From a virus (lineage: Duplodnaviria > Caudoviricetes): a stretch of 64,000 nt of DNA. Shown piece after piece: positions 4,141 through 64,000 of this stretch. Position numbers and translations under genes: made by a program. The stretch spans positions 22-64,021 of IMG/VR virus record IMGVR_UViG_3300036827_000134; one strand, written 5' to 3'. The notes beneath the pieces are model-generated. The model did not search any database. It had not been told where the DNA came from and was given only the letters and a program-made list of their open reading frames with translations. Every line of letters begins with the position of its first letter. The first letter of the stretch is position 1.

Positions 4141-5355
4141 GTGCCCCAAGTGGCCTGGGCGTCTCAGGCATACCAAGCCCGCAGTCCGCAGCTTCTCTCC
4201 CAGCAGGCGATCAACTGCTTTACAGAGCCTACACCCAAAGAAGGTAAAACGACAACACCGCTCTACGGCATCCCAGGCCTCTCTCTGTTCTCACGCATGG
4301 GCAACGGTCCGATCATCGGGCTGCATGTGATGAACCAGACACTGTTCATCCTTTCTGGGCGGCAACTATGGTCGATTGATTACGAGACGTTTCTTGAGAC
4401 GGCGCCGTGGTCGCCCGTCGCCGCCACCTTCATCGGCACCACGACGCTCGGTGGCCTCGCCTCGATGGCCGACAACACGCAACAGCTGGTGATGGTCGAC
4501 GGCAGCGCCGGTTGGGTCTACCAACCGGGTGGCCTCAACCAGGTAACGACCGCCACTGTCGCAGTCGGTGGAACGTCGATCCCCGCCAACATCATTGGCG
4601 TGCTTGGCCCCGGCGACGCGCTCCTCGTGGAGATGGACGACGGATCGGTGTTCCATACAACGGTGGCATCGGTGACCGCGACCAGCATCGCGTTGACCGA
4701 TGCGCTGCCCAGCCAATTAAGTGCCGGCGCCATCATCATCGACCCGACGAACGTGCTCGGTCAAATCACCGCGCCGGCCTTCAAAGCCGCCAACACAGTG
4801 CGGTACTTCGACGGTTACTTCGTCTTTAATGCCCGCAATACGCGGCAGTTTTTCATCTCAGGGATCAATGACGGCACGCAATATTCCGGCCTGGACTTCG
4901 CGACAGCTTCGGCCGGCAGCGATCTGCTTGTCTCTCTGGAAGTCTGGCACGAGCAATTGTTGCTGTTGTGCGAACGGCACACCGAGGTCTGGTGGGACTC
5001 GGGCAACGCATCGTTTCCGTTCCAGCGTTACGATGCCGCGCTGATCGCCCGCGGTCTGCCATTGGGCGCGCCGTACTGTGTCTGCTCCGAGGATAACACG
5101 GTCTTCTGGATGGGCGACGATGGCATTTTTTATCGTCTCGACAACTATGCGCCGAAGCGCATCAGCACCTACGCGATGGAAACCGCCTGGGCACAATATC
5201 CGCTGCGCTTCACTGACGCGTCCTGTTTTGTGCTGGATCAGGAAGGGCATAAGTTCATCATCATCAACTTTCCCTCGGGCGACGGAACGTGGTGTTACGA
5301 CATTTCCTCGGGGTTGTGGCATCAACGCGTGAGTTACGGCACGGCGTGGGTGTGA
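4141..5355 (+). CDS. Tail hub/DNA stabilisation protein (P22 gp10-like), N-terminal part
   Basis: LYGIPGL, SMADN, YFDGYFVF, TEVWWDSG..FPFQR, QEGHKF..NFPS..TWCYD..GLWHQR motifs. Confidence 0.85.
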   Translation: MPQVAWASQAYQARSPQLLSQQAINCFTEPTPKEGKTTTPLYGIPGLSLFSRMGNGPIIGLHVMNQTLFILSGRQLWSIDYETFLETAPWSPVAATFIGTTTLGGLASMADNTQQLVMVDGSAGWVYQPGGLNQVTTATVAVGGTSIPANIIGVLGPGDALLVEMDDGSVFHTTVASVTATSIALTDALPSQLSAGAIIIDPTNVLGQITAPAFKAANTVRYFDGYFVFNARNTRQFFISGINDGTQYSGLDFATASAGSDLLVSLEVWHEQLLLLCERHTEVWWDSGNASFPFQRYDAALIARGLPLGAPYCVCSEDNTVFWMGDDGIFYRLDNYAPKRISTYAMETAWAQYPLRFTDASCFVLDQEGHKFIIINFPSGDGTWCYDISSGLWHQRVSYGTAWV

Positions 5356-5364
5356 CGGCATTAA

Positions 5365-6510
5365 ATGGCGGATTATCAGGTCTATTTCAGACTCGACAAC
5401 GGCTCATGGTTCGGTTCGGCGCCGGGAGCTGATCCGGTCGCCAACACGGGCGGTATGGACCTGTCCGCGATGGCCGGCACGACGATGTATCCAGCGGTGC
5501 AAGGCACCGGCGATGCCGGCATTACCGTGAATTTCGGCGCGTCGGCGTTCTCTTTCCCGGTGCCGTCAGGATACGTGGCTGGCTGGCCGCACAGCGGCGG
5601 CGGCTTCACGACGCTCGATCCAAGCAAACTATTCGGAAGCGCTGCTCTGGGTAGCGGCAATTTGGTTGCCGGCTTTGCCACCGTGCCAGGCCTGGCGCAG
5701 GCGGTCGACGGCTACACCACCGGCAAATACTATTTCGAGTTGGTCAATCCGACCGGCGACCTCTTCTCAGCCGATTGGGGCGGGGGTATTGGCCAGAACT
5801 TCGCGGTTGGCGGAAACCTCAACGAATGGTTTAGCAACGGCCGATTTAGTTCAAGCAACAATCTGGGAGGCGGCCTGATCGGCGGCCAGAACCTTGCACA
5901 CGAGCTGTCGTCGCTGGCCGCGCTTGGCTCGAATGTCTTGTCCGATGTCTTTAATTTCGCAACAAACGCCAATCACATCGTTGGTGTCGCGGTGTTCCTT
6001 ACGAGCGCTCCGCCGCCGCCTCCGGCGCCCACGCCAGGCATCGTGGTGCCACCGAACCTCGGCCGCTGGCGAGGGCAGTGCGGCATCAACTGGAACGGGT
6101 TAGCCCTGGTCGGCGACGCATTTACCAATGTTGTCGGTTTGTCGAACTTCAATAGCTTCAACGAGTACGGCAACAAGATTCATATGCTGGCGACCTCGCC
6201 GCCGCTGCATGAGGATCGCAAGCGCATCTTTGTCTCTCGATTTGAGGTAGAGGTTGAGGCCGGCGAAGGTACGCCAGACCTGCCGCAGACCGCGCCGCTA
6301 CTCGTGCTCGATTACTCGAAAGACGGCGGCATAACCTTTGCGCCGTTGCAGCAATTTCGCTCGATGGGAACCGCCGGCGAATACATCAAGCGATTGCGGT
6401 GGATTAACTTAGGCCAGTCGCGCACCTGGATTTTTCGGATCCGCTATTCCGATGCGGCGCGGCCAGCCATCATCGGCACCTATTACGATTACTGGAAATC
6501 TTTAGGGTGA
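5365..6510 (+). CDS. Permuted SPRY-like domain fused to C-terminal part of gp10-like protein
   Basis: SPRY motifs (NGSW, YPAV, VNFGASAF..PSGY, GNL, GKYYFE, VGVAV), then Pro linker and GRWRG...YSKDGGITF...GEY..RLRW.NLGQSR gp10 C-terminus. Confidence 0.8.
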   Translation: MADYQVYFRLDNGSWFGSAPGADPVANTGGMDLSAMAGTTMYPAVQGTGDAGITVNFGASAFSFPVPSGYVAGWPHSGGGFTTLDPSKLFGSAALGSGNLVAGFATVPGLAQAVDGYTTGKYYFELVNPTGDLFSADWGGGIGQNFAVGGNLNEWFSNGRFSSSNNLGGGLIGGQNLAHELSSLAALGSNVLSDVFNFATNANHIVGVAVFLTSAPPPPPAPTPGIVVPPNLGRWRGQCGINWNGLALVGDAFTNVVGLSNFNSFNEYGNKIHMLATSPPLHEDRKRIFVSRFEVEVEAGEGTPDLPQTAPLLVLDYSKDGGITFAPLQQFRSMGTAGEYIKRLRWINLGQSRTWIFRIRYSDAARPAIIGTYYDYWKSLG

Positions 6511-7004
6511 TTGTCACCATCGAGCGCCTGAAGGAGGTTTTGCACTACGATCCTTCGTCGGGAGCCTTCAGATGGCGCGCGCGACGGCGGTTTTGTAGGT
6601 ACGGGGCAGGAGACATCGCGGGCACAGACAACGGCAATTATTGGATCATCCGGATCGACGGCGAAGGCTACAAGGCGCACCGCCTGGCGTGGTTCTACAC
6701 ATACGGAGCGTGGCCGAAACGCCTGGACCATCGCGATACCGATAAGCTGAATAATCGACTCGCTAATCTAAGGCTCGCAACGAACGCTCAGAATGTCGCC
6801 AATGTCGGCTTGAGGGCGAACAGCACGACAGGCATCAAAGGGGTTCGTTACGTTCCAAAAGGCCGAAGGCGAAAATGGAATGCCCAGATGACCGAGAAGG
6901 GAAAAACTCGCAATCTGGGATGGTTCTTCACCGCCGAAGAAGCGACCGTCGCTTATCGCGAAGCGGCGCAGCAGGCGTTCGGCGAGTTCGCGAGGTTCGA
7001 ATGA
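6507..7004 (+). CDS. HNH-AP2 homing endonuclease
   Basis: LHYDPSSG, YKAHRLAWFY..G.WP..LDHRD...NNRLANLRLAT, AP2-like LGWFFTAEEA..AY...FGEFAR. Confidence 0.92.
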   Translation: MIVTIERLKEVLHYDPSSGAFRWRARRRFCRYGAGDIAGTDNGNYWIIRIDGEGYKAHRLAWFYTYGAWPKRLDHRDTDKLNNRLANLRLATNAQNVANVGLRANSTTGIKGVRYVPKGRRRKWNAQMTEKGKTRNLGWFFTAEEATVAYREAAQQAFGEFARFE

Positions 7005-20334: not shown

Positions 20335-22398
20335 TTAAGCCGGGAACCCAGCGCGCTGCTGCTTGATGAAGTCGACAATGGCAGCGTACTCAGTCGCGTC
20401 ATTCTGATTTAGCCACCCGACAGCGCCGTCAACCATCGAGTCGCCGTCCAACGCCTGGAAGGCCTCAAGCGTCTCACAACCCTCCACGCGCATGCGCACG
20501 TAGGCGCTATTCGCGGCGCTCATGACCCGCACCCAGCCAGGAGGGTCGGTCGCCAGCACATTCGCAATCAGCGTTTTGATCCGCGGCATCGCCAACCAGG
20601 TGGTCACACTCTCGGCGCTGGTCAGCGACAGCACGTCGCCGCGCAGATCCTCGACAATGTTCGGTGCCGCGCTGCCGTTGCCTTTCCCTGCTGCCGACGC
20701 AGTGAGTTCCTTGCGCCGGGCCTCAAGGATGCCAATCGCGTCCAACCGGTAAGCGTTCGGCATGCCGTTGATGGTCCCGGTATTGACCGCCTGAATATGG
20801 CCGAGCTGCAGTTCGGTCGCGGTCGCAGCCTTCGCCTTCAGCGCCTCATTGAATACCACGAAGGCGGCACGAGTTGGTTTGGTTGGCTTCGGGATCAATG
20901 CCATGTCGTGTGGCGCGTCCAACGGCAATTCGTTTGCCATGGCCGACTGCTGTTGCGTCTCGGCCGCTGGCTGCACCTTCGGCGGGTTAAGCACCTCCTC
21001 GACGGCATAAGGGCTAAGTTCACGCGCAGCGGTCAGCGACTCGGCGTTGGCCCGCTCGAATGGTTTGCGTTCCGGCGGGAACATATCGGCGTAAGCCTTG
21101 GCATAGGCTTTGGCGAACTCAACCGGGTCGGTGAAATCCTCGGTCCCGTCGATCGCCACGCCGTCGCCGTCGATCAGCCAAGCGGCAAAGGGGGCACCGG
21201 AGGACTCAGGTTGAATCTGCTTCGCCTCCGGTGCCGACGGCCCCACTGCTGCCCCGGTTTGCGAAGTTCGGGTTTCACCGGCGCTGGCGGACGTTTTGGA
21301 AGAAGCCGCCGGAGGCGCGGCAGGACCATCACCTCTGGCCTCGGACACCGCAGGCGATCCTGCTTCGCGCTGCGTCCCTGTGGACGCGGCCGGCGGCGGC
21401 TTCTGGCCCGTATCGCCCTGCGCTGCGGTATCAGGCGGATCGGTTGGCGGCGTTCCGCGTTCCTGCGGCGCAGGTTCTTTTGCTGCTGCCTTGCGGGGCG
21501 CTCGCCGATGGGGCGTGCCGGCCTGCGGCGCAGCGCTGTTCTGGGTTGCGTGCGCCTGATCGACCGCACCCCAAACCCCGCCGCCAGCCGCCGCACCTTC
21601 CACCTCGAACCAATCGGCAGGAGCGGACATGCCGTCCGTGAGCGATGCAAATATCTTGCTCAATTGGATCACCTGCGCCGGACGGATCGCCTCAATGCGT
21701 CGTTGGATCCGCTTTTCGATTTGCTCGCGGGTCACCTCGAACTGCTCGAACGCTTCGACCATGCGGATCAGCGCTTCTGGCGTGGTGTCGGCTGTCGCCG
21801 CGAGCGTCTCTTCGCATTGCTCAACCGCGGCTTCGACCACGTCACCTGGGATCACCGTCAGGAGCGCGGCTCGCTTACGCCTGGCACCGTTGTTTGCCAC
21901 CAGCTCGTAAATATCGCGCTCGTCGGTGATAGCGTAACCGCCCTGCTTCGTGTCGCGCCAATGACGAACCTGAAACTGGCGCTCGTCATAGAAGCCGGAC
22001 TCCATGTCCCACGCATACGCGATGCACTCGCTATAACCTCCGGCGCGGCTGACCTCCTTTACCCCAGAGGCGATATTCCCCCATCGCTGGGCAAGCGCCT
22101 CGGCGAGCCGGATTGATGGTCCCGAGATGTCTGTCCCGCCCCGCACGTACTGATAAAGCGCTTTTTTCGCCAAGGTCGGCCGGGTGCAATCCGACAGGAT
22201 CATATCCATCGCCTTGATGGGATCGCGTGGGTAAGAGCGCGCGATCATCATGCGAGCCTGTACTTCCGCAACGGTCTTCTGCTGGTCCGATCGCGCCAAA
22301 GCTCCACCGCCGCCTGAGACCTGGACGGCTTGACTGCCGAATGGGTTGCTGACCCTGTCCGAACGGCGCGGTTCGGGCGGCAGGATTTCGTCACTCAT
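20335..22398 (-). CDS. Putative single-strand annealing/recombination protein with long low-complexity linker and C-terminal extension
   Basis: ARSYPRD...ISGPSIRLAEALAQRWGN...AWDME...RRKRAALL.VIPGD N-terminal domain, common in phage recombination modules. Confidence 0.55.
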   Translation of the reverse strand: MSDEILPPEPRRSDRVSNPFGSQAVQVSGGGGALARSDQQKTVAEVQARMMIARSYPRDPIKAMDMILSDCTRPTLAKKALYQYVRGGTDISGPSIRLAEALAQRWGNIASGVKEVSRAGGYSECIAYAWDMESGFYDERQFQVRHWRDTKQGGYAITDERDIYELVANNGARRKRAALLTVIPGDVVEAAVEQCEETLAATADTTPEALIRMVEAFEQFEVTREQIEKRIQRRIEAIRPAQVIQLSKIFASLTDGMSAPADWFEVEGAAAGGGVWGAVDQAHATQNSAAPQAGTPHRRAPRKAAAKEPAPQERGTPPTDPPDTAAQGDTGQKPPPAASTGTQREAGSPAVSEARGDGPAAPPAASSKTSASAGETRTSQTGAAVGPSAPEAKQIQPESSGAPFAAWLIDGDGVAIDGTEDFTDPVEFAKAYAKAYADMFPPERKPFERANAESLTAARELSPYAVEEVLNPPKVQPAAETQQQSAMANELPLDAPHDMALIPKPTKPTRAAFVVFNEALKAKAATATELQLGHIQAVNTGTINGMPNAYRLDAIGILEARRKELTASAAGKGNGSAAPNIVEDLRGDVLSLTSAESVTTWLAMPRIKTLIANVLATDPPGWVRVMSAANSAYVRMRVEGCETLEAFQALDGDSMVDGAVGWLNQNDATEYAAIVDFIKQQRAGFPA

Positions 22399-22895
22399 GT
22401 GATTTTCCTTTTGTTCCTGTAATAAGCGTTCATGCATTCACGGTGGTGAACACCACTGCGACGAACGAACAGACTGGCGGGGTCGTCATACCGCTTACAG
22501 AAGCGGCATTTCCTTGCGTCTGGATTTCCGCAGGCGATTAGCGCCTTCGTTCGGAGGTGCAGCAAGTCGTGATAGGCAGCATCGGGGCAGATAACCAGAT
22601 TGACCGAGAGATTATTTGAGCGATCAAAATCGACGTGGTGCACCTCAACCTTTGGCGGCAGAACTCTCCCGAGTGCCTTTTCTGCGGTCCATTGGTGAGC
22701 GAGTTTCGAAACACCATCAACCATAATCCGAACATAGCCATTCGACATCGTGCTACCCGTTCCGGCGCGCCTGTTCTTCGGTGGATCCGCCAGTGTGTTC
22801 CCGTACCGCAGCTTCCGGGCATAATGGCCCTTGCACAGACCAACCGCGCGCAACGGTCTCTCGCAATGCTCTACCGTGCAACGGCCGGTGTTCAC
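22395..22895 (-). CDS. HNH homing endonuclease
   Basis: CTVEHC...GLCKGHY zinc knuckle; LAHQWTAEKALGR...EVHHVDFDRSNN...NLVIC; GTGA/ATGA coupling at both ends. Confidence 0.85.
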   Translation of the reverse strand: MNTGRCTVEHCERPLRAVGLCKGHYARKLRYGNTLADPPKNRRAGTGSTMSNGYVRIMVDGVSKLAHQWTAEKALGRVLPPKVEVHHVDFDRSNNLSVNLVICPDAAYHDLLHLRTKALIACGNPDARKCRFCKRYDDPASLFVRRSGVHHRECMNAYYRNKRKIT

Positions 22896-28432: not shown

Positions 28433-29887
28433 TTAGGAAAACAGGCGCGGTCGTTGCGGCGCCTTCGCAATCTGTGTGAGCAGCGGCGCGTCCTTCAGCA
28501 ACCGGCGCTGTGCCATCTCACAGTACTCTGGGCTCAATTCGATTCCGATCGCGTCGCGCTGTAGGCGATCGGCAACCATCGCTGTCGTGAATGCGCCAGC
28601 GAAACAATCCAAGACAGTACACGGAACCACGGCGGATTCGCATACGCAAGATGCAAGCCAGCCTGTCGTACGATCCTCCGTGACCGGGACGCCGGTCTTT
28701 CCTTTCGATCGGCCGTTTCGATGGATCGTGCCATGCGCACCCTCGCTGGCGTCCCAGCCATCCGCCGCTTTCTGGATGCGGTCAGTGCTCACGCGTTCAA
28801 TCTGCCTGACCCATGGCGCCCGGCATAAAGCGCAACAACCTTTCTCGCTCGTTCCCGCACGGATCAGCGGCTCAACGAGGCCCGAAGGAAAAACTGCGAA
28901 GTGACTGCCCGGAAATGGCTGCGTATTGACATCGAGCGCGATCGGATCGCCACCGTCATCTGTGATCAGACCATGAGGCGCGTTGAGACTGTCGAAAAAC
29001 AGGTCCGAGTTCCGGAAATTCCTGGCGCCAGTGTATTCCCAGTACTCCGGCGGCCGCCCGTTTACGTCTTTCAACTCTGAGCGCACATTGGAACCCTTCG
29101 CCGCGCGCGTGCCGGCGGCGACGGAGCCGACCCTTTTGACCGCGGTTACGTCCCAGTAGTACTTTGCCGACTTCGTCAGGAGATAGACGTACTCGACTGC
29201 TGAGGCTGGCCGGTCAGTCACGCTCTCCGGCATGCAGGAGCGTTTGATCCATGGCATCTGCGACCGAAGGAACCAACCGTCGGCTTGCAATGCCATCGCC
29301 ACGCGGGCCGGCATCATCATCAGGTCTTTTGGTTTGAGGCCGAGGTCTGGCCATGATCGAATGTTGCCGAGTGCTTCTTGCGTGTGTCTTCGGTCCCTTC
29401 GCTGCCCGCGTTTGCCCTGCGTGCCTGTTCCTCCTCCGCTGGCGTACCCGTCCCCCATGTTGACGAACAGGACAGCGTCAGGCCGCAGGACCCGCCAAAC
29501 CTCTCGGAAAATCAAAACCTCATGGGCGACAAATAGATCGGGGTTTGGTTCGAGACCGTGCGCGCCGGCCCATGCGTTGCAGCGTTGACAGAATTTTCCT
29601 TGAGGCACCTCGGTGCGGAGCCACGCGACACGTTTTTCGGTCGGTTGCTCTTCGTCCCGGCCGTTGCGGGTGTGTTGCCACCGTCGCTTGTCGGTGTGGT
29701 TCGTCGCGTTGACCTGAAGAACGTCACCCCATTCATGTTCGCAGGTATCATCGTCGCCCCATATCGTTGCTGGTACGCCATAATCGCGTAGGCCAAGATA
29801 CGGAGGACTCGTGATGCAGCAATGAACGCTGGCGTCTGGCAGCTTGCGCAATTCGTCGCGTGCGTCGCCGCAGATAATCCGGATCAC
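28433..29887 (-). CDS. Beta-class N4-cytosine/N6-adenine DNA methyltransferase
   Basis: Motif IV TSPPY near N-terminus, HFAVFP, motif I VLDCFAGAFTT, GIELSPEY; GTGA coupling. Confidence 0.92.
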   Translation of the reverse strand: MIRIICGDARDELRKLPDASVHCCITSPPYLGLRDYGVPATIWGDDDTCEHEWGDVLQVNATNHTDKRRWQHTRNGRDEEQPTEKRVAWLRTEVPQGKFCQRCNAWAGAHGLEPNPDLFVAHEVLIFREVWRVLRPDAVLFVNMGDGYASGGGTGTQGKRGQRRDRRHTQEALGNIRSWPDLGLKPKDLMMMPARVAMALQADGWFLRSQMPWIKRSCMPESVTDRPASAVEYVYLLTKSAKYYWDVTAVKRVGSVAAGTRAAKGSNVRSELKDVNGRPPEYWEYTGARNFRNSDLFFDSLNAPHGLITDDGGDPIALDVNTQPFPGSHFAVFPSGLVEPLIRAGTSEKGCCALCRAPWVRQIERVSTDRIQKAADGWDASEGAHGTIHRNGRSKGKTGVPVTEDRTTGWLASCVCESAVVPCTVLDCFAGAFTTAMVADRLQRDAIGIELSPEYCEMAQRRLLKDAPLLTQIAKAPQRPRLFS

Positions 29888-30107
29888 AGCGGACCGCCCG
29901 GCACTGGCGTGATAAGGTCGATCAGGTCCATCTGTGGACTCTGTGTGCGGTGGCGCAGCGCCGCCCGATAACTGCGCCGCGAGCACGCCGGTGTAGGGTC
30001 CGGCAGGGCGGATCGCGCCGTCTCGGCGATACAATCGCAGCACCACCGTGAACGGTCCGGGATCTCCGCGCCATCATCTGGCCGACCCGCACAGGACAGG
30101 CACTCCC

Positions 30108-30293: not shown

Positions 30294-30459
30294 CGGCCAT
30301 ACGCCTGCAGCGCCGCCACGATCACCGCGGTTTCGCTGACGGAAAGTTCCCGGATTTTGATATAGTCCATGTAACCGCGCTCAATCCGACGTGCGAGGTC
30401 CGACGCCTCGAAACGCGTCGTCTCGGGCTTACGCTCGATCGTGACGGTATCCGCCATGG

Positions 30460-31206
30460 TCAATCCCCTCCGAACAAACGCGGCCGCGCCGGCGCTGCAT
30501 ACCGCTCGCTGGTCATCTCCTCCTGCAACACCGGCAGTAGGTGCCTGGCGTTGGCCGCGACCGCCGCTGTGAGCAACTCGGCCGAGGCGAGCCACGCCAT
30601 CGCCGGCAGGCTCTTGAACGTGCCAAGGCCGCTGTCACGCGGCGTTTGGCGTGATGCCGCGTCGTGGTAGTACGCCATCAGCTTGCGTGCCTTGTCCCGG
30701 ACCACGCCTTCGTCATCCCATTCGGCCTCGCGTTCGCCAGGTTCGGGCGCCAGGCGCCACCCGCGACCAACCACCAGATCGGCAGCGCGCATGTCTTCGC
30801 GCACCACCCAGTTGAACGCCAGGGGTTCGAGCGAATGAATCAGGCCCAGTGCTGACACGGCGTGATGGTCATCCGTGGCCTTCAGAAACCGGGCAAACAA
30901 GATCTTGCCCATCCGAGACAGCGGCGCGGCCTCGGCCTCGGCCGGCAATGCCAGTTCATCCGCTGTGCCAAGGTTTTCCTTGCACCACGCATCAAGCGCG
31001 GTGCTGACCACGGCCTCATTCCAATAGCGGACATTGCCGGCGATCGCGTCCTGCGACTGCTGACAGAATGCTGCAGCTTCGAACCGAGCGACGAAGGCCG
31101 GCGTGGCGGTCTCGGCATTGCGCTTTGCATCGGCAACGGATTGCGGAACCTGCCGGCCCATGACCTCGAGCAGCCAGCGGCCCACCATGCGCTTAGTCGC
31201 CTTCAT
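30460..31206 (-). CDS. Hypothetical protein, possible helicase-loader-like partner of the initiator
   Basis: Directly downstream of initiator-like gene; RPRLF tail. Confidence 0.45.
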   Translation of the reverse strand: MKATKRMVGRWLLEVMGRQVPQSVADAKRNAETATPAFVARFEAAAFCQQSQDAIAGNVRYWNEAVVSTALDAWCKENLGTADELALPAEAEAAPLSRMGKILFARFLKATDDHHAVSALGLIHSLEPLAFNWVVREDMRAADLVVGRGWRLAPEPGEREAEWDDEGVVRDKARKLMAYYHDAASRQTPRDSGLGTFKSLPAMAWLASAELLTAAVAANARHLLPVLQEEMTSERYAAPARPRLFGGD

Positions 31207-31618
31207 GGAAGGTGCCTTCCAGAAGCGGAACGGAATTGTCGAGCTGCGCAAGGAGGATGGCGGCGCCGTTCACCGACTGTTCATGGTGGTGCGGAGCGCG
31301 GCGCATCTGGTACCCGTGCTCGAGTAATTTTGCGAGCGATTTGGGCTGAAGCACAAAATCCAGGTCGGCTTTCCAACCGCGGTCATTATCGCCGCAGCAG
31401 AAAGCGCTGGCTTCGACCCGGGCGACTGCCTCGAGCAGGCCAGCGATGCCAACCTCCCGCAATCGGCAGCGCAGGTTCGCAGTGCGCGTTTTGGTCATCA
31501 ACCGGACCCGAGGAAGTCCGGCACGGGCGGCCATGGCGTTCCACGCATCCAGAACGCTTTGGCTGTCGGCGGCGCTTGTGTCCGCCAGCAGGCTCATCCC
31601 AGCCACTGTAACCGACAT
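31193..31618 (-). CDS. Replication-initiator C-terminal-like domain protein
   Basis: WN...LP.V..MT..R...S.F..G.NDRGWKADLDFVL.P....K.LE..Y motif; no N-terminal wHTH. Confidence 0.65.
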   Translation of the reverse strand: MSVTVAGMSLLADTSAADSQSVLDAWNAMAARAGLPRVRLMTKTRTANLRCRLREVGIAGLLEAVARVEASAFCCGDNDRGWKADLDFVLQPKSLAKLLEHGYQMRRAPHHHEQSVNGAAILLAQLDNSVPLLEGTFHEGD

Positions 31619-31883
31619 TTAACGGATATTTTTCTACGCAAAGGCCCGTTCTCCCCTGAAACCATTGGGACAGCCGTTGCGTTCGACGCCTGTGCGCACC
31701 TATGGTGGCAGCACCGGTCGTCGTCCGACCACAGTCCCAGTGTGGTCTATGGCTCAAGTGTCAGGGGTTTCCGGCCCCTGACCACCGCCATCTCTTCAGT
31801 CTGCTACCCTACCGTGTGGCGGTCAACCGGCTTTTACGAAAAGATGCGTTGCCGACTCGGTTCTCTTGTGCCTTAACTGGTAA

Positions 31884-32237
31884 ATGAGTTGGCTAACCCG
31901 AGGGAAAGCAAAGCGAAACATGCCTGGGAAAAAACGGATCTGGACCGAGGCTGAGGATGAGGCGCTGCGCCAGCTGATCGCTGCCGGTGGATCGACGAAC
32001 GATGCCGCTGCGCGGTTCGGTTGTGGCCGGCAGCATGCACTCGCGCACGCCAAGAAGATCGGCGCGATGAAGCCGCGCACCCCCTATGTGAAGCCACGAT
32101 CCAACGCGAGCCTCTATTACGACGATCCGTTGCCGGCGTGGCGCAAGGATTGGTGGCCGCTGCCGGCGGGCCATCCGGTGCCCTGGCAGGCCATCACCGC
32201 TGGCACCGTCCTGGAGGGCCAGGAGTATCCGCAATGA
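31884..32237 (+). CDS. GcrA/Myb-like HTH protein
   Basis: WTEAEDEALRQL...G.S...AARFG HTH; PLPAGHP..W tail. Confidence 0.65.
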   Translation: MSWLTRGKAKRNMPGKKRIWTEAEDEALRQLIAAGGSTNDAAARFGCGRQHALAHAKKIGAMKPRTPYVKPRSNASLYYDDPLPAWRKDWWPLPAGHPVPWQAITAGTVLEGQEYPQ

Positions 32238-32578: not shown

Positions 32579-33019
32579 GTGAGTGTGCACATCGGTTTTA
32601 CCGGCACCCGCAACGGCATGACACCGGAGCAACAAACGCGGGTCAGCCTGTTGCTGTTGGAACTGGGTGCGACCGACCTGCACCACGGCGATTGCACCGG
32701 CAGCGACGATCAGATGGATCAGATTGCCTGTGAACTGGGGATTGGAGTCTGCGTACACCCGCCGCTCAATCCGTTGCATCGTGCCTGGTGCCACACCCGG
32801 CCGCACGATGCCGACTTCCTGATGTACGAGCCAAACCCCTATCTTCATCGTAATCGGGCGATCGTCGACGCTACGGAAGGGCTGGTCGCCACACCGAAAA
32901 CCATGGCCGAAACGACCCGTTCAGGCACGTGGTCGACGATCCGCCATGCGCTGCGCCGAGGTGTCCCGGTCTGGATCGTTCGGCCCGATGGTTCGGTGAA
33001 GTTCCGCGGGCCAAAATGA
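32579..33019 (+). CDS. SLOG/DprA-like Rossmann nucleotide-binding protein
   Basis: IGFTGTR.GMT, LHHGDC.G.D, RNRAIVD, SGTWSTIR.A. Confidence 0.75.
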   Translation: MSVHIGFTGTRNGMTPEQQTRVSLLLLELGATDLHHGDCTGSDDQMDQIACELGIGVCVHPPLNPLHRAWCHTRPHDADFLMYEPNPYLHRNRAIVDATEGLVATPKTMAETTRSGTWSTIRHALRRGVPVWIVRPDGSVKFRGPK

Positions 33020-33525
33020 AAACGGCCCGCAGGGGTGGGTTGACCGGCGAGCCGTTTCCGATAGGCTTTCGATGTCGCGACTGGAGTTGGAAGCTCCGAC
33101 GCGGGACCAAACACTGACGGAACCAGGTTTGGAACACTTGAGAGCCATACGATACGTGCTCTTGAGCCAAATTCAACCCTCCTACCGTGACAGTTTTGGT
33201 CCCCGGCGGTTTTCCGCCCGAGGTCGCACAGCCTCGCCCGTTTCGGGGAATCCCGCGAGGGAACAACGGTGGGCGCGCGAGGTCGATGGCGGTACCACGG
33301 GACAGCAAACCGCCGCTGAGTACGACGGGCCCTGGCGACAGGGTCGGGCACCGCTCTGCTGCGTCGGGGAAAGCCGGCGACAAAAGGTGTCTGGGCACGC
33401 GGGCAAATCCCCTGCGCTGCCTGACCGCATGCGGCGACGACCGCCCGGTGACCCGTCTGACCTTCGTTGCTTTTGGGCAACGGGGTTAGGCGACCGTGTC
33501 TCCGGTCATCGTTGCCGATGACTGC
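33020..33525 (+). ncRNA. Candidate large structured non-coding RNA
   Basis: About 12 hairpins read by eye, GCGA tetraloops, G-U pairs consistent with + strand, no credible CDS. Confidence 0.55.
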
Positions 33526-33619
33526 CTTGAAGGAAGATGTTGATGAAGGGTAAATGCTAAAGTTCAAAAGAAAGACTGAGAGGTAGTACTGTGTATCCGC
33601 GCGAGAGAAAGTAAATAAT

Positions 33620-33898
33620 ATGCAACAACTTTTCGGAAATTGGGTCGCCGAAAATCCGATGCGCCGCACAGTTCCGCTGCCGATCGGGAACGAAGGGAGT
33701 TGGTATCATATCGAACCGGATATCATCGTCGATTATGTGTCGGCGCATGGTTCGCAGCGCAGTCTTGTTTCCGTGCTGATGCGGGAATCGCGTCGCGGTC
33801 CCGAGGGTCTCCGGATTCTGGACGTCGGCGTTGATGTCGAATGGATTGACCAACGCATGAAGGAAGCCACATTTTGGCCCATTCACCGCAAACAATAA
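33620..33898 (+). CDS. Hypothetical protein
   Basis: ORF after purine-rich spacer. Confidence 0.5.
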   Translation: MQQLFGNWVAENPMRRTVPLPIGNEGSWYHIEPDIIVDYVSAHGSQRSLVSVLMRESRRGPEGLRILDVGVDVEWIDQRMKEATFWPIHRKQ

Positions 33899-33911
33899 CT
33901 GGTAAACAACC

Positions 33912-34262
33912 ATGCGAACTGAATATACGATCTTTCGACCGGGCCATGAATCAGGCGAACGTCACGAAATCGACTGGCCAGAGGAACCGGACTACCGGGA
34001 GATCGTCGCGCTGATATCCTCAATACTCGGCGGTGCGGACCTCGAGCACGTCAACGTCCTGTACGAGGCCGCCCGGCACGATATGTTCATCGACGAGTTA
34101 AGCTCGACTTCCCTGAAGCCTGGGTATCCGCTGCCGCAGAACGATCGCGCGACCGAGATTTACCGGGCGAACTGGCTGGCGCACCATCGGTGCGCCGATC
34201 CGGAGGAACTGCCGGCGATCTACGGGCCGGCTGTTCTGTTCCATCGTATCGTTTGGACGTAG
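33912..34262 (+). CDS. Conserved phage protein (DUF3846-like)
   Basis: GG..EHV...MFIDE...LP.N.RAT..Y...IYGPAVL motif. Confidence 0.6.
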   Translation: MRTEYTIFRPGHESGERHEIDWPEEPDYREIVALISSILGGADLEHVNVLYEAARHDMFIDELSSTSLKPGYPLPQNDRATEIYRANWLAHHRCADPEELPAIYGPAVLFHRIVWT

Positions 34263-34451
34263 ACGTGGCCAACGAAACCGAAATCCTGCACGCGAGATGG
34301 CGCATTACAAACATCCGCCACGCGCCGCCCGGTTGGCCGAGGGGATGGGCTTGTGTGCACCCGGCCGAGGCCTGCACGTGGCAGGAGCGGTGCGAATCGC
34401 TGCACGAGTGCAATTACCACCGCTTGATGAAATGATCGGCGAACCGCCTTT

Positions 34452-34820
34452 TTGATGACCCAGCGTCGCACCCTCGAGCAGCAACGGCTTGATGCCACTG
34501 TCTGGGCGGCACAGCTCCGGCGCGGACTGAGCGTTAAGCAACTCGCCGCAGCAGAGGGTATCGAGACCAAGCAGGTCTATCGGGACCTGCGGGCTTGCGG
34601 TTATTCGTTGTCGGCGCTGCAGGTGGAGAGGGCGCCCGAAGCGGCGATCGAGGAGGAAGCGATGTTCGAAGGATTCCCGCAAGTGGCCAGCGAACGGCCG
34701 GCCTGGATGCATCTGAGCGCGAACGACATAGCTTTCCTGCATCGCGTGCGGGAGGAAATCCGAGCGGCCGATCGCGTGATGGCGTATAAATCTCGCGCAA
34801 GCGGTCAATTTATGGACTAA
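34452..34820 (+). CDS. HTH protein
   Basis: GLSVKQLAAAEGIETKQVYRDL. Confidence 0.6.
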   Translation: MMTQRRTLEQQRLDATVWAAQLRRGLSVKQLAAAEGIETKQVYRDLRACGYSLSALQVERAPEAAIEEEAMFEGFPQVASERPAWMHLSANDIAFLHRVREEIRAADRVMAYKSRASGQFMD

Positions 34821-34857
34821 CGAAAAACCCCAACCGCGGCATGGGAGATGGGCCCCG

Positions 34858-35574
34858 ATGGCAGTCACGCGGGACGGTACAACGTCGAAATTACGTCAAC
34901 CCGACATCATCGAAGCGATTCGAGATGTGCAGCGCACCGCCGGAAACCGAGCGTTTCGACCGGCCGTGATGGAAATGCTGCTTGCCAGGTTCCAGATGGT
35001 TCCGACCAAAGGTCAATTGAGTGGGATGCTATGGCGCGAAGGCCTCTCGGTTGGAAATGACGGTGTGCTGCGCGAAACTGATGGCGCGGCAGCGCTGGAT
35101 CTGGCCAGGAAGCGAAGCCGGGAGGAGGTCGACCGCCGGCGCCAGCAACGCGAGCATGCGCGAGCTGCCGCGGTTGCGGTTTCGGATGCTGCAGCGGTGA
35201 AACCGCCGGCGCAACCAAAGCAACCCAGGCCGGCATCCGTGCAACAGAAACCAGTTGTCGTGCAACCGGCCGCCCGGGTCACCGTGATCTCCCCCGCCGC
35301 CGCAGCGGCCCTGGTGCCATCGCTGCCGGATCCGCCGCCAGCGGTCGCTGTGGTGGCGCCTCCGCGGCCGCCACCGACGCGCCAGGCCAGCTGCGTGTTC
35401 CCGCTCGGCGATCCTGGCACCCGAGAGTTCCACTACTGCGACGATGCAACACTCCCGGGTCGGCCGTACTGCCTGGCCCATTGCACCACCGCTTATCAGG
35501 GCTTCAAACCGGAGCGGAAATACAACGAAGCAACCGCCTCCTATGCTGGGTTGTTTCCCGCACGGCATCTTTAA
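34858..35574 (+). CDS. gcrA: GcrA cell-cycle regulator homologue
   Basis: C-terminal CVFPLGDP....FHYC.....GRPYC..HC..AY zinc motif; Pro-rich linker. Confidence 0.8.
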   Translation: MAVTRDGTTSKLRQPDIIEAIRDVQRTAGNRAFRPAVMEMLLARFQMVPTKGQLSGMLWREGLSVGNDGVLRETDGAAALDLARKRSREEVDRRRQQREHARAAAVAVSDAAAVKPPAQPKQPRPASVQQKPVVVQPAARVTVISPAAAAALVPSLPDPPPAVAVVAPPRPPPTRQASCVFPLGDPGTREFHYCDDATLPGRPYCLAHCTTAYQGFKPERKYNEATASYAGLFPARHL

Positions 35575-35879
35575 TCGGGAAACGCAATGCCCGCGCGTTG
35601 CAGCGTGTCCAGCAGGCGAATGATCACCACGGCCCAACCGGGCATAATCTGATCGCCTGAGGCCCAGCGCCGCACCGATCGTTCGTTGACGCGGGCAAAG
35701 GCCGCAAAGGTACGTTGCGTGTGGCCGAGATCCCGCAATGCAGAGCGGAAGGCCTCGGGCGTTATCGTGACCGGGTGATCACCACCAGAATCACCACCGC
35801 TATCACTGCGGCCCAGAACGCCAGGCCAAGGCTTACTCCGGTCACGCAACCTTTCAGAAGTCCGGGTTTCATACGCCAC
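35571..35879 (-). CDS. XRE-family HTH protein (start uncertain)
   Basis: TPEAFRSALRDLGHTQR.FA....VNERSVRRWASG. Confidence 0.7.
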   Translation of the reverse strand: MAYETRTSERLRDRSKPWPGVLGRSDSGGDSGGDHPVTITPEAFRSALRDLGHTQRTFAAFARVNERSVRRWASGDQIMPGWAVVIIRLLDTLQRAGIAFPD

Positions 35880-36299
35880 AACTCAATACTCCTTTGGCTT
35901 GCTGGCAAGGTCACCACCTTGTCGCCATTTAATGCGGTCGGCCTCGAGCGCGCCTGACCGCGGAACGATCGCCGAACCACTCGATGATGCAGATCACGAC
36001 GGCGGTCAGGATTATCAGGAACATTCGCCGTTATCCTTTCGAGTCAGATCGACCGGGCGGCCAAAGAATGCGCGCTTGCAGTCGACGCAGTGCATGGCGA
36101 CCAGATGCTTGCCGAGGTAATAGGTGGCGACCCGATGCCCGGGCCGGCGCCACATGTGCCAGAGGGCCCGGAGGCGGGCCCTGAGCGGGCCGCCAGCGGT
36201 CATTGGCCAGCTCCGCTGGCGGTCGCAGTCGGCTTGTGGCCGAATCGGGTGACGGCAGCCCGACGCACATCGTCGGGCTTACGAGGACGTGGCATCGGC

Positions 36300-37139
36300 T
36301 CAACCCTCCCCTGCCACGTCACGCTCAGCGTCAACGCCGTACTCGGCGCCGTCGATAAGGCCGGCGGATACTTTCCAATCAAACAGAGCGTTGGCCAACT
36401 CGCGGCGTATCGTAGCGGCCTCGGCGAGGGACGTGACGTGGTAAGCGCTACCACGAAGGCCAAATGATCCAGAGATATGGCAAAACCGTTCGTGGGCCAT
36501 GCGAGCCTTGCGCACGATGTTGAACCGCCGATCGCGCTTAATCTGTTCCGCCACGATCTCCGCCACGCCGGCGCCGGGAAGCGGCCCCTGGTCGACCGGA
36601 GCGGGTGCAATCTCGAGTCCGCAATCGGGTAACGCACGCTCAGGCCAGTACCGGGCCGCCGGCATACGCCAGTCACGGCGCCACTTGATCTTACCGCCCA
36701 GCGGTCCTGTCATGCTGCACAGCCGGCCAGGGACGGTCAGGACGACCGTTTCGGTCAATGGGGCATGCGAGTACCAGTTCTCGCCCAGACAGCTGCGAAT
36801 CGCGTCCACAGCCGCGCCGTGCAGGCTCCAAAAACGCTCAGCCGTCATCGCTGGCACTTTGGTCACTTTCGGTGCTGGAGCGGTTGGACTTTTCCGGGTC
36901 GGTTTCGGAACCAGCGTCACGACCGGCGCCGGCGCGTCCATCTGATCAGCGCGGGCGGCCAGTGCCACGCAAGAGGCCTCGAGGCGGTCGACCTGGTCGG
37001 GTGCGAGACCTGGCGTAGTCTCGAGGTAGCGTTGCCAGAATGCCGCGCGGGCCCGGAGATCGGCCGAACTCGGATCAGCGTTACTGAGTTGATCAAGAAG
37101 TGTAAGAGCGGCGACAGTCGTTTGAAGTGATGCACTCAT
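36300..37139 (-). CDS. Hypothetical early protein
   Basis: 279-aa ORF with AAGGA RBS. Confidence 0.6.
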   Translation of the reverse strand: MSASLQTTVAALTLLDQLSNADPSSADLRARAAFWQRYLETTPGLAPDQVDRLEASCVALAARADQMDAPAPVVTLVPKPTRKSPTAPAPKVTKVPAMTAERFWSLHGAAVDAIRSCLGENWYSHAPLTETVVLTVPGRLCSMTGPLGGKIKWRRDWRMPAARYWPERALPDCGLEIAPAPVDQGPLPGAGVAEIVAEQIKRDRRFNIVRKARMAHERFCHISGSFGLRGSAYHVTSLAEAATIRRELANALFDWKVSAGLIDGAEYGVDAERDVAGEG

Positions 37140-63593: not shown

Positions 63594-63904
63594 TGGCGGT
63601 TTATGTCCTCGTTGCCACTGTTCCTTGGCACGCACCTGACGGCACAACGCAGGCTCCAGGGACGGTTGCACAGCGAATTGTCTGGGATGGCGTGACGCCC
63701 TATGAGCCGCCCACGGGTTTTTCGATCCAACCTTGGACCAACCAGGTGCAATACGCACCGGTGTTTGCCCCTGATCCGCCATCTGCACAGAGCGTCCTTG
63801 CCGGCCTCTCGCTGGCGGAGGTCACCCAACTCAAAACGCAGGCTGACGCGGTGGTGGCAAATCCTGCTCAGCAACAAGCAAGCAACGCGTCGTCATTGAC
63901 TTAG
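63593..63904 (+). CDS. Putative fibre assembly chaperone
   Basis: V..RIVWDG...Y.PP motif following Gly-rich fibre; TGATG coupling. Confidence 0.5.
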   Translation: MAVYVLVATVPWHAPDGTTQAPGTVAQRIVWDGVTPYEPPTGFSIQPWTNQVQYAPVFAPDPPSAQSVLAGLSLAEVTQLKTQADAVVANPAQQQASNASSLT

Positions 63905-64000
63905 GAGCCAGGGCCATGGCTGACGACCGTCACTTTATTGGCGGAGATAACTATATTTTAGACGATATCTCAGGTTTTAAGATAAGAGCCTCCCGCGCGC
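63886..64000. repeat. Direct terminal repeat, right copy
   Basis: 114/115 identical to 1-115. Confidence 0.97.

Follow-up and report, generated by a model that had tools for sequence, protein, structure and literature searches.

Does a 600-nt stretch between two early genes of an uncultivated tailed phage act as an RNA, as a DNA site or merely as a spacer? The question arises at positions 33020-33619 of the window (the whole stretch of DNA that was analysed, 64,000 nt), in a gap between a DprA-like gene and a 92-aa orphan gene on the same strand. The original prediction saw a densely structured non-coding element of ~500 nt in this gap, a candidate new phage RNA and possibly a replication primer.

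Genomic setting of the element

The window covers almost all of a 64,021-base virus record. Positions 1-115 and 63886-64000 are direct repeats with 99% identity, which marks the record as a complete genome that is terminally redundant or circularly permuted. According to PHROG, Pfam and NCBIfam scans, the genes are those of a tailed phage (terminase, portal, major head protein, tail fibres); seven or more genes of the HNH or endonuclease VII type, a DNA methylase and a DnaQ-like exonuclease are also present. For the major head protein, identity to that of any isolated phage does not exceed 55%, and identity to prophage copies from 11 Gluconacetobacter genomes (21 loci found) is 74-75%. Judging from these copies, the host is probably an alphaproteobacterium. 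The same prophage copies indicate that the phage group has temperate members in acetic acid bacteria.

Between ~20.3 and 31.6 kb, genes are oriented leftward. A rightward block begins at 31.9 kb, and the element lies 1.1 kb inside it. Genes that matter for its interpretation are:

20335-22437, - strand: 699-aa protein beside the DnaQ-like exonuclease, with an HNH ORF between them; ~387 relatives of its strongly conserved N-terminal domain
31193-31618, - strand: O-like/DnaD-like initiator domain (PHROG, Pfam and NCBIfam scans)
32579-33019, + strand: left neighbour, complete gene for a small DprA-like/SLOG-type protein with relatives that align end to end
33620-33898, + strand: right neighbour, 92-aa orphan gene
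34858-35574: GcrA-like gene, within the orphan gene cluster 33620-35574 downstream of the element

The DprA-like protein has 6830 relatives at E≤0.001, of ~140-150 aa and aligned from residues 1-5 to 140-146, and it was matched in 18 phage records, some with a DprA-like annotation. For the 92-aa protein, the sole match among 5.8 billion clusters was its own cluster, with 3 members from 3 contigs of 3505, 3746 and 20264 nt (near-identical relatives). Both flanking genes are missing from the two complete relatives of the phage. A self-splicing intron was considered and rejected, since the left gene has full length in comparison with its relatives, and the right one is an orphan with its own start.

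Coding capacity, a related copy and searches for homologues

A codon-usage model was trained on 21 confident genes, which score 0.013-0.326 per codon. The score was below 0 in all six frames of 33020-33619, with -0.07 to -0.22 per codon for the five internal ORFs and +0.03 and +0.05 for the flanking genes. (A simple codon-usage gene caller misses the HNH genes and is unreliable for listing gaps.) None of the five internal ORFs was present in the protein collection, compared to three of four flanking ORFs. Pfam and PHROG scans of the internal ORFs gave no match, and neither did tblastn in 50,697 phage records; traces of a decayed gene were likewise not found by PHROG, Pfam or tblastn. Negative codon usage and the absence of the ORFs from the protein collection thus bear out the original view that the stretch contains no credible gene.

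The only comparative evidence came from a spurious ORF call in a related contig. In a protein search with ORF 33072-33521, the sole match among 97 candidates was P0159, a 175-aa ORF on a 1005-nt contig. By tblastn, P0159 matches the + strand of the element alternately in two frames, and is a read-through of a related copy. This copy is known only through the gene caller's translation, and its nucleotides are fixed only where amino acids determine them. The comparison with the element gives six collinear blocks with 282 columns, of which 150 are amino-acid-fixed, and 6 definite substitutions. Small indels of +1, +2, -1, -2 and +1 nt separate the blocks, in addition to larger ones. Such frame changes would be intolerable for a coding sequence, which argues that the element is non-coding. 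The best-conserved part is:

33234-33464: sequence-conserved core common to the P0159 copy, comprising 3 blocks with 222 columns, 116 of them fixed, and 3 definite substitutions

Three of the small indels (-1, -2, +1) are located between or after the core blocks. The 27 P0159 residues ahead of 33010 have no match leftward in the window, so the relative has a different left neighbour.

It would be surprising in the extreme if ORF 33072-33521, ORF 33187-33489 or a 274-aa ORF on the - strand were protein-coding, the first two being the coding alternatives named with the original prediction. These frames are open, and the gene caller's P0159 spans the related copy, but P0159 alternates between two frames and the copy shifts frame at least six times across the overlapping ORFs. 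Negative codon usage in all frames, the lack of Pfam, PHROG and tblastn matches, and the absence of all five ORFs from the protein collection point in the same direction. The stretch 33020-33619 is non-coding.

With Rfam 15 at gathering thresholds, the whole window gave 0 matches, and thus none to group I/II introns, tmRNA or riboswitches. A permissive scan of 32900-33700 returned six matches to unrelated families, with E-values of 0.95-8.9 and 11.6-16 bits versus thresholds of 40-63.6. The earlier statement that the element cannot be assigned to a named RNA family therefore held in the Rfam scan. RNase P RNA, which a short stretch seemed to resemble, was rejected, as no RNase P model scored.

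DNA searches found no match to the element in the phage collection, in 46 further related IMG/VR records (0/46) or in 401 genomes of the same class (0/401). In the two complete relatives, matches did not exceed 34 nt, and the best was inside the left gene. A 33-nt match at E 0.008 in 14 genomes with related prophages was taken as chance. Locus scans were also run with both flanking proteins and with the nearest relative found for the left gene; they confirmed no further copy in collections that may omit records very near this genome. Scans with the translation of an internal ORF gave 4 pattern matches in viral contigs and 190 in metagenome contigs, of which 0 were confirmed. More generally, pattern scans of viral, metagenome and genome collections gave no confirmed homologue; a match in a Clostridia contig was discarded because extended similarity was absent. 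As far as these searches reach, the element is so far lineage-specific.

Predicted fold and strand

The architecture was taken from the pair probabilities of the global fold:

33010-33057: hairpin H0, in which an A-run (read as a U-run on the - strand) precedes the stem at 33020-33057; pair probability 0.94
33086-33102/33361-33378: long-range stem that closes a domain with hairpins A and B
33103-33203: hairpin A, 101 nt, imperfect, ~39 pairs; both strands equally stable
33204-33315, + strand: hairpin B, alternatively several short local hairpins; probability 0.8-0.95, weakly supported
33393-33422, + strand: 11-pair hairpin; probability 0.94
33428-33520, + strand favoured: hairpin C, 93 nt, imperfect, ~37 pairs, G.U-rich; probability 0.90-1.00
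33521-33587, + strand: AU-rich hairpin
33521-33619, + strand: purine- and A/T-rich tail, ~40% GC
33603-33611, + strand: SD-like GAGAGAAAG of the 92-aa gene

According to the prediction, hairpins A and C both reach about two helical turns or more and contain bulges and loops. The segment 33590-33640 is unstructured (z +0.82). A predicted closing helix of 33065-33085 with 33596-33612 would cover the SD-like purines of the 92-aa gene; it was not relied on, because the relative does not conserve the 5' side of this helix.

The fold is better than that of shuffled sequence. For the whole 601 nt, the + strand has a minimum free energy of -264.7 kcal/mol and z -5.55 against 20 dinucleotide shuffles, compared to z -3.61 for the - strand (20 shuffles). 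With 100 shuffles, the values are z -4.20 (0/100 as good) and z -2.45 (0/100), respectively, and the original prediction was supported in this respect. The excess has three sources, namely hairpin A (segment 33100-33206: z -5.91, 0/300, on the + strand and z -3.86, 1/300, on the - strand), the 3' domain 33393-33520 (z -4.34, 0/300, and z -2.16, 6/300) and the long-range closure of 33086-33378 (z -4.23, 0/150, and z -2.40, 3/150). Within the 3' domain, the apical hairpin of hairpin C alone reaches z -3.79 (0/200). Hairpin B has z -2.32, with 7/300 shuffles as good.

The original prediction fared unevenly in its details. The composite stem at 33103-33203 is well supported, with helix pair probabilities of 0.89-0.99 in addition to the + strand z-score of -5.91 (0/300), and the hairpins at 33393-33422 and 33454-33492, the TCCC-GCGA-GGGA hairpin and the purine-rich tail are all present. 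The description "almost continuously base-paired" was overstated, as the middle third does no better than chance: z ranges from -1.14 to +1.12 in eight 120-nt windows with start positions at 33150-33360, so that no local excess is seen. The back-to-back short hairpins at 33205-33392 were thus not confirmed as special, and most are replaced in the global fold by the hairpin 33204-33315 and the stem 33086-33102/33361-33378.

A strong z-score against shuffles shrinks when the genome's own background is used for comparison, a lesson that concerns the method in general. Among 379 GC-corrected windows of 500 nt, the element ranks second (z -2.6; five windows were added around the element), and among 425 windows of 300 nt it ranks seventh and ninth (z -2.2 and -2.1), behind several coding windows. 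It thus belongs merely to the top ~2% of windows. Two other non-coding stretches served as controls: a second spacer in this operon, at 34260-34455, gave z +0.35 (125/200 shuffles as good), and the divergent regulatory region (31615-31890) gave z -2.35. In the early region of the complete relative G001, no analogous element stands out, and the extreme of 478 windows is z -2.38. As a side observation, the most stable + strand windows of our phage after GC correction are 36151-36450 (z -3.04) and 35876-36375 (z -2.61), which overlap - strand ORFs and a short gap at 35880-36030.

The related copy can be compared with the predicted structure. Homology with P0159 begins at 33010, exactly at the A-run and hairpin H0, which marks the left edge of the shared block. 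Where both sides of a predicted pair are covered, 59 of 61 pairs are still pairable, which is little informative because changes are few. By hand placement, four indels fall on predicted unpaired positions (+1 after 33033, +2 near 33060, -1 at 33249, +1 at 33464), and the fifth (-2 in 33334-33341) is inside a weak hairpin. The apical stem of hairpin C is kept, with a change of U.G to C-G and a different loop (hand reading). The interior of hairpin A is ~35-43 nt shorter (hand reading). The 5' arm of hairpin B, 33213-33233, is replaced by a different stretch, 12 nt longer (hand reading), and the 3' arm is unchanged, which argues against a long helix.

Compensatory changes are absent from the well-aligned P0159 blocks. 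The basal stem of hairpin A may be kept in the relative by three paired changes, but these depend on a hand alignment and the test is weak: among 109 upstream 8-nt segments, 7 fit the 3' arm equally well, and the proposed segment stands out by its number of fixed Watson-Crick pairs (5, the highest).

Could the element nevertheless be filler without a function, a remnant of recombination or gene loss that merely spaces genes in a mosaic early region, with hairpins that are by-products of GC content or old palindromes? We consider this doubtful, although several points speak for it. No DNA match was found in the 46 + 2 related records, the 14 prophage hosts and the 401 class genomes. Single-sequence covariance models of hairpin A and of 33390-33523, run over 49 records, detected only the window itself, and the element is absent from 48/48 other records by this measure; two identical 15-bit matches lie inside a 503-aa ORF and were dismissed. 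The flanking genes are missing from both complete relatives, the genome background leaves only a modest folding excess, with a third of the element at chance, and the 5' half changes freely, with large indels in the relative. On the other hand, phage genomes are compact, the block is kept beside a different left neighbour with 6 substitutions in 150 fixed positions, small indels avoid predicted helices according to a hand reading, 300/300 shuffles fold less well on the + strand than hairpin A or the 3' domain, and a decayed-gene trace was not found. Taken together, the element is a real, moderately structured, non-coding orphan.

Which strand carries the structure was also at issue. A preference for the + strand, deduced earlier from G-U pairs, is true for the 3' half only, hairpins A and B being strand-neutral. 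Hairpin A has -42.4 versus -42.7 kcal/mol on the two strands, and hairpin B is also strand-equal. The segment 33390-33523 has -69.2 kcal/mol on the + strand versus -59.1 on the - strand, and the AU-rich hairpin -16.2 versus -2.5 kcal/mol. Throughout the element, the - strand folds worse than the + strand, with the exception of H0 (- strand: -28.3 kcal/mol, z -2.46, 5/200; + strand: -21.4 kcal/mol, z -1.22, 21/200). On the - strand, the H0 stem is followed by UUUUCAUUUU, and the hairpin is terminator-like for leftward transcription; it was not among the matches of a terminator scan.

Three substitutions in the P0159 copy affect predicted paired positions. Two of them (at 33055, and T>C at 33418) break an A-U pair on the + strand (A-U to A.C), the latter being A33397-U33418 of the hairpin 33393-33422, and would give U.G on the - strand. 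The third pairs on the + strand only (A-U to G.U), with a partner outside the coverage of the relative. In the element, the scan detected neither a + strand terminator (H0 lacks a U-run on this strand) nor a - strand promoter at a suitable place; the sole match, 33732-33705, is inside the 92-aa gene, and the best matches of a hand search for a - strand promoter did not exceed 8/12. Overall, the + strand is favoured by folding and gene context, though not decisively.

Possible roles: replication site, RNA gene or intercistronic leader

The original prediction raised the possibility of a ColE1 RNA II-like R-loop primer or origin, on the grounds that no polymerase, primase, helicase or full initiator was visible. 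For polymerase, primase and helicase that premise could not be overturned, as none was identified; an O-like/DnaD-like initiator domain and a DnaQ-like exonuclease are present. The 699-aa protein next to the exonuclease had no sequence match in Pfam, NCBIfam or PDB, and its structure model (mean pLDDT 68.6) had 0 Foldseek matches at E≤0.001; it is an unassigned protein of a replication or recombination module.

More broadly, the element could work at the DNA level, either as a replication origin (including the primer type) or as an inverted-repeat site for protein binding or recombination. The equal stability of hairpins A and B on both strands is as expected of DNA palindromes, a 100-nt stretch of ~40% GC adjoins the hairpins, and the O-like initiator gene is only 1.4 kb away in a phage with no identified polymerase, primase or helicase. 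Nevertheless, such a role is very unlikely. There are no tandem repeats within 33020-33620 and no iterons, the only repeats being of 10-13 nt in 2-3 copies with irregular spacing, and an iteron-type (lambda-like) origin was rejected for want of regularly spaced direct repeats. DnaA box matches by eye do not exceed 6/9, the element has one GANTC site, and Rfam found no RNA I or other plasmid-copy-control RNA. The cumulative GC skew has its minimum at 31-32 kb, so that the turn is ~1-2 kb left of the element, and the 3' half of the element is clearly strand-asymmetric. The likeness to ColE1 RNA II (~500 nt, folded, then purine-rich, in a phage without a named polymerase) is offset by the lack of an RNA I match and of origin signs, and by an initiator-like protein encoded in the phage; with the GC-skew turn elsewhere and iterons missing, the primer proposal found no support. 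We note in passing that a tandem repeat (31609-31631, 11-nt unit, 2.1 copies) lies at the edge of the divergent region beside the initiator-like gene, at the GC-skew minimum.

A free-standing, trans-acting non-coding RNA gene of ~500-600 nt or shorter is unlikely, too. It might be encoded on the - strand, running from 33520-33640 to H0 (33057-33010), and this layout has its attractions: a GC-rich folded body is A/T-rich at one end and has a hairpin with a U-run at the other end (on the - strand), similarity to the relative sets in precisely at the U/A-run, and two of the three substitutions at paired positions keep pairing only on the - strand. Against it, the - strand folds worse everywhere but at H0, a scan and a hand search of the - strand revealed no suitably placed promoter-like site, and no homologue was found in the collections searched, so that no conserved structure is visible. 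Without a family match, such an RNA would be new. Distinctly improbable is the more specific proposal of a new ~500-600-nt trans-acting phage RNA that would act in early infection as a protein decoy or scaffold, or as a replication primer, in what would so far be a narrow lineage of phages that infect Acetobacterales/Rhodospirillales-type alphaproteobacteria.

With the large RNAs GOLLD, ROOL, OLE, raiA and HEARO (see also PMC12286853), the element shares a length of several hundred nt, location in a phage, lack of coding capacity and GNRA-type loops. It differs from them in having no Rfam model match even at E≤10, and in offering no demonstrable conserved pseudoknots or multi-stem junctions. 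Classes of the GOLLD/ROOL/OLE type are defined by wide conservation with covariation, whereas the element is an orphan by DNA. Another difference from large ornate RNAs is that the nearest tRNA gene is 2.6 kb away. If the element were a discrete RNA, the large RNAs of phages would gain one without a family.

We tentatively prefer, as the best of the available explanations and with less than full conviction, that the element serves as a structured leader between cistrons of an early + strand transcript, where it would act in cis on processing, stability or translation of the downstream orphan genes. Since no + strand terminator separates the element from its flanking genes, it would be transcribed within their polycistronic mRNA, which would be a rightward early message. 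The + strand RNA is predicted to form a small number of long, imperfect hairpins (A, C, the AU-rich one and perhaps B). These might serve as cis-acting processing or stability signals, cut by a double-strand-specific RNase of the host, for example RNase III. As a folded leader, they may also set translation and lifetime of the orphan cluster 33620-35574.

Several observations are in line with a leader, namely the same-strand genes on both sides with no + strand terminator, a + strand preference that is strongest in the half adjoining the downstream start, and a block that is kept in the relative next to a different left neighbour. Others are at odds with it. Compared with the genome background, the excess in folding is modest and the coding window at 36151 does better (z -3.04), and the best-conserved part, 33234-33390, has no local folding excess. 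Two of the three substitutions at paired positions pair only on the - strand, hairpins A and B are strand-neutral, and H0 is terminator-like for the - strand. Finally, 600 nt far exceeds any single processing signal.

RNase III processing signals are also found in lambda early mRNAs. The early precursor of T7, ~7000 nt in length, has five RNase III signals between cistrons (PMC3867540); such signals are known as long, internally looped hairpins with over 20 pairs. The predicted hairpins of the element are similar in being imperfect and internally looped and, given the presumed transcription unit, would lie on the sense strand between early cistrons. The T7 signals are single hairpins of roughly 50-100 nt, whereas the element is a 600-nt block of multiple hairpins with a poorly folded conserved core. 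The resemblance to RNase III signals is thus to be read as an analogy of mechanism, not as membership. If processing or leader signals are indeed present, the element would illustrate how early genes are kept apart and timed in an uncultivated phage of alphaproteobacteria, a useful but ordinary finding.

Three further observations concern other parts of the genome. The tRNA-Ile (GAT) gene at 30326-30419 is unusually long according to ARAGORN (94 nt); it may carry an insertion, or the call may be marginal. GANTC is strongly under-represented genome-wide, with 138 sites observed versus 293 expected and higher counts in 100 of 100 shuffles; this GANTC-poor genome has an N6/N4 DNA methylase gene (28433-30046) as well as the GcrA-like gene (34858-35574). 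ORFs 4141-5355 and 5365-6510 match consecutive parts of a single PHROG family, head closure Hc3 (profile positions 5-328, then 330-467), and are directly followed by an HNH endonuclease gene (6507-7004), so the Hc3 gene may have been split or rearranged beside a homing endonuclease.
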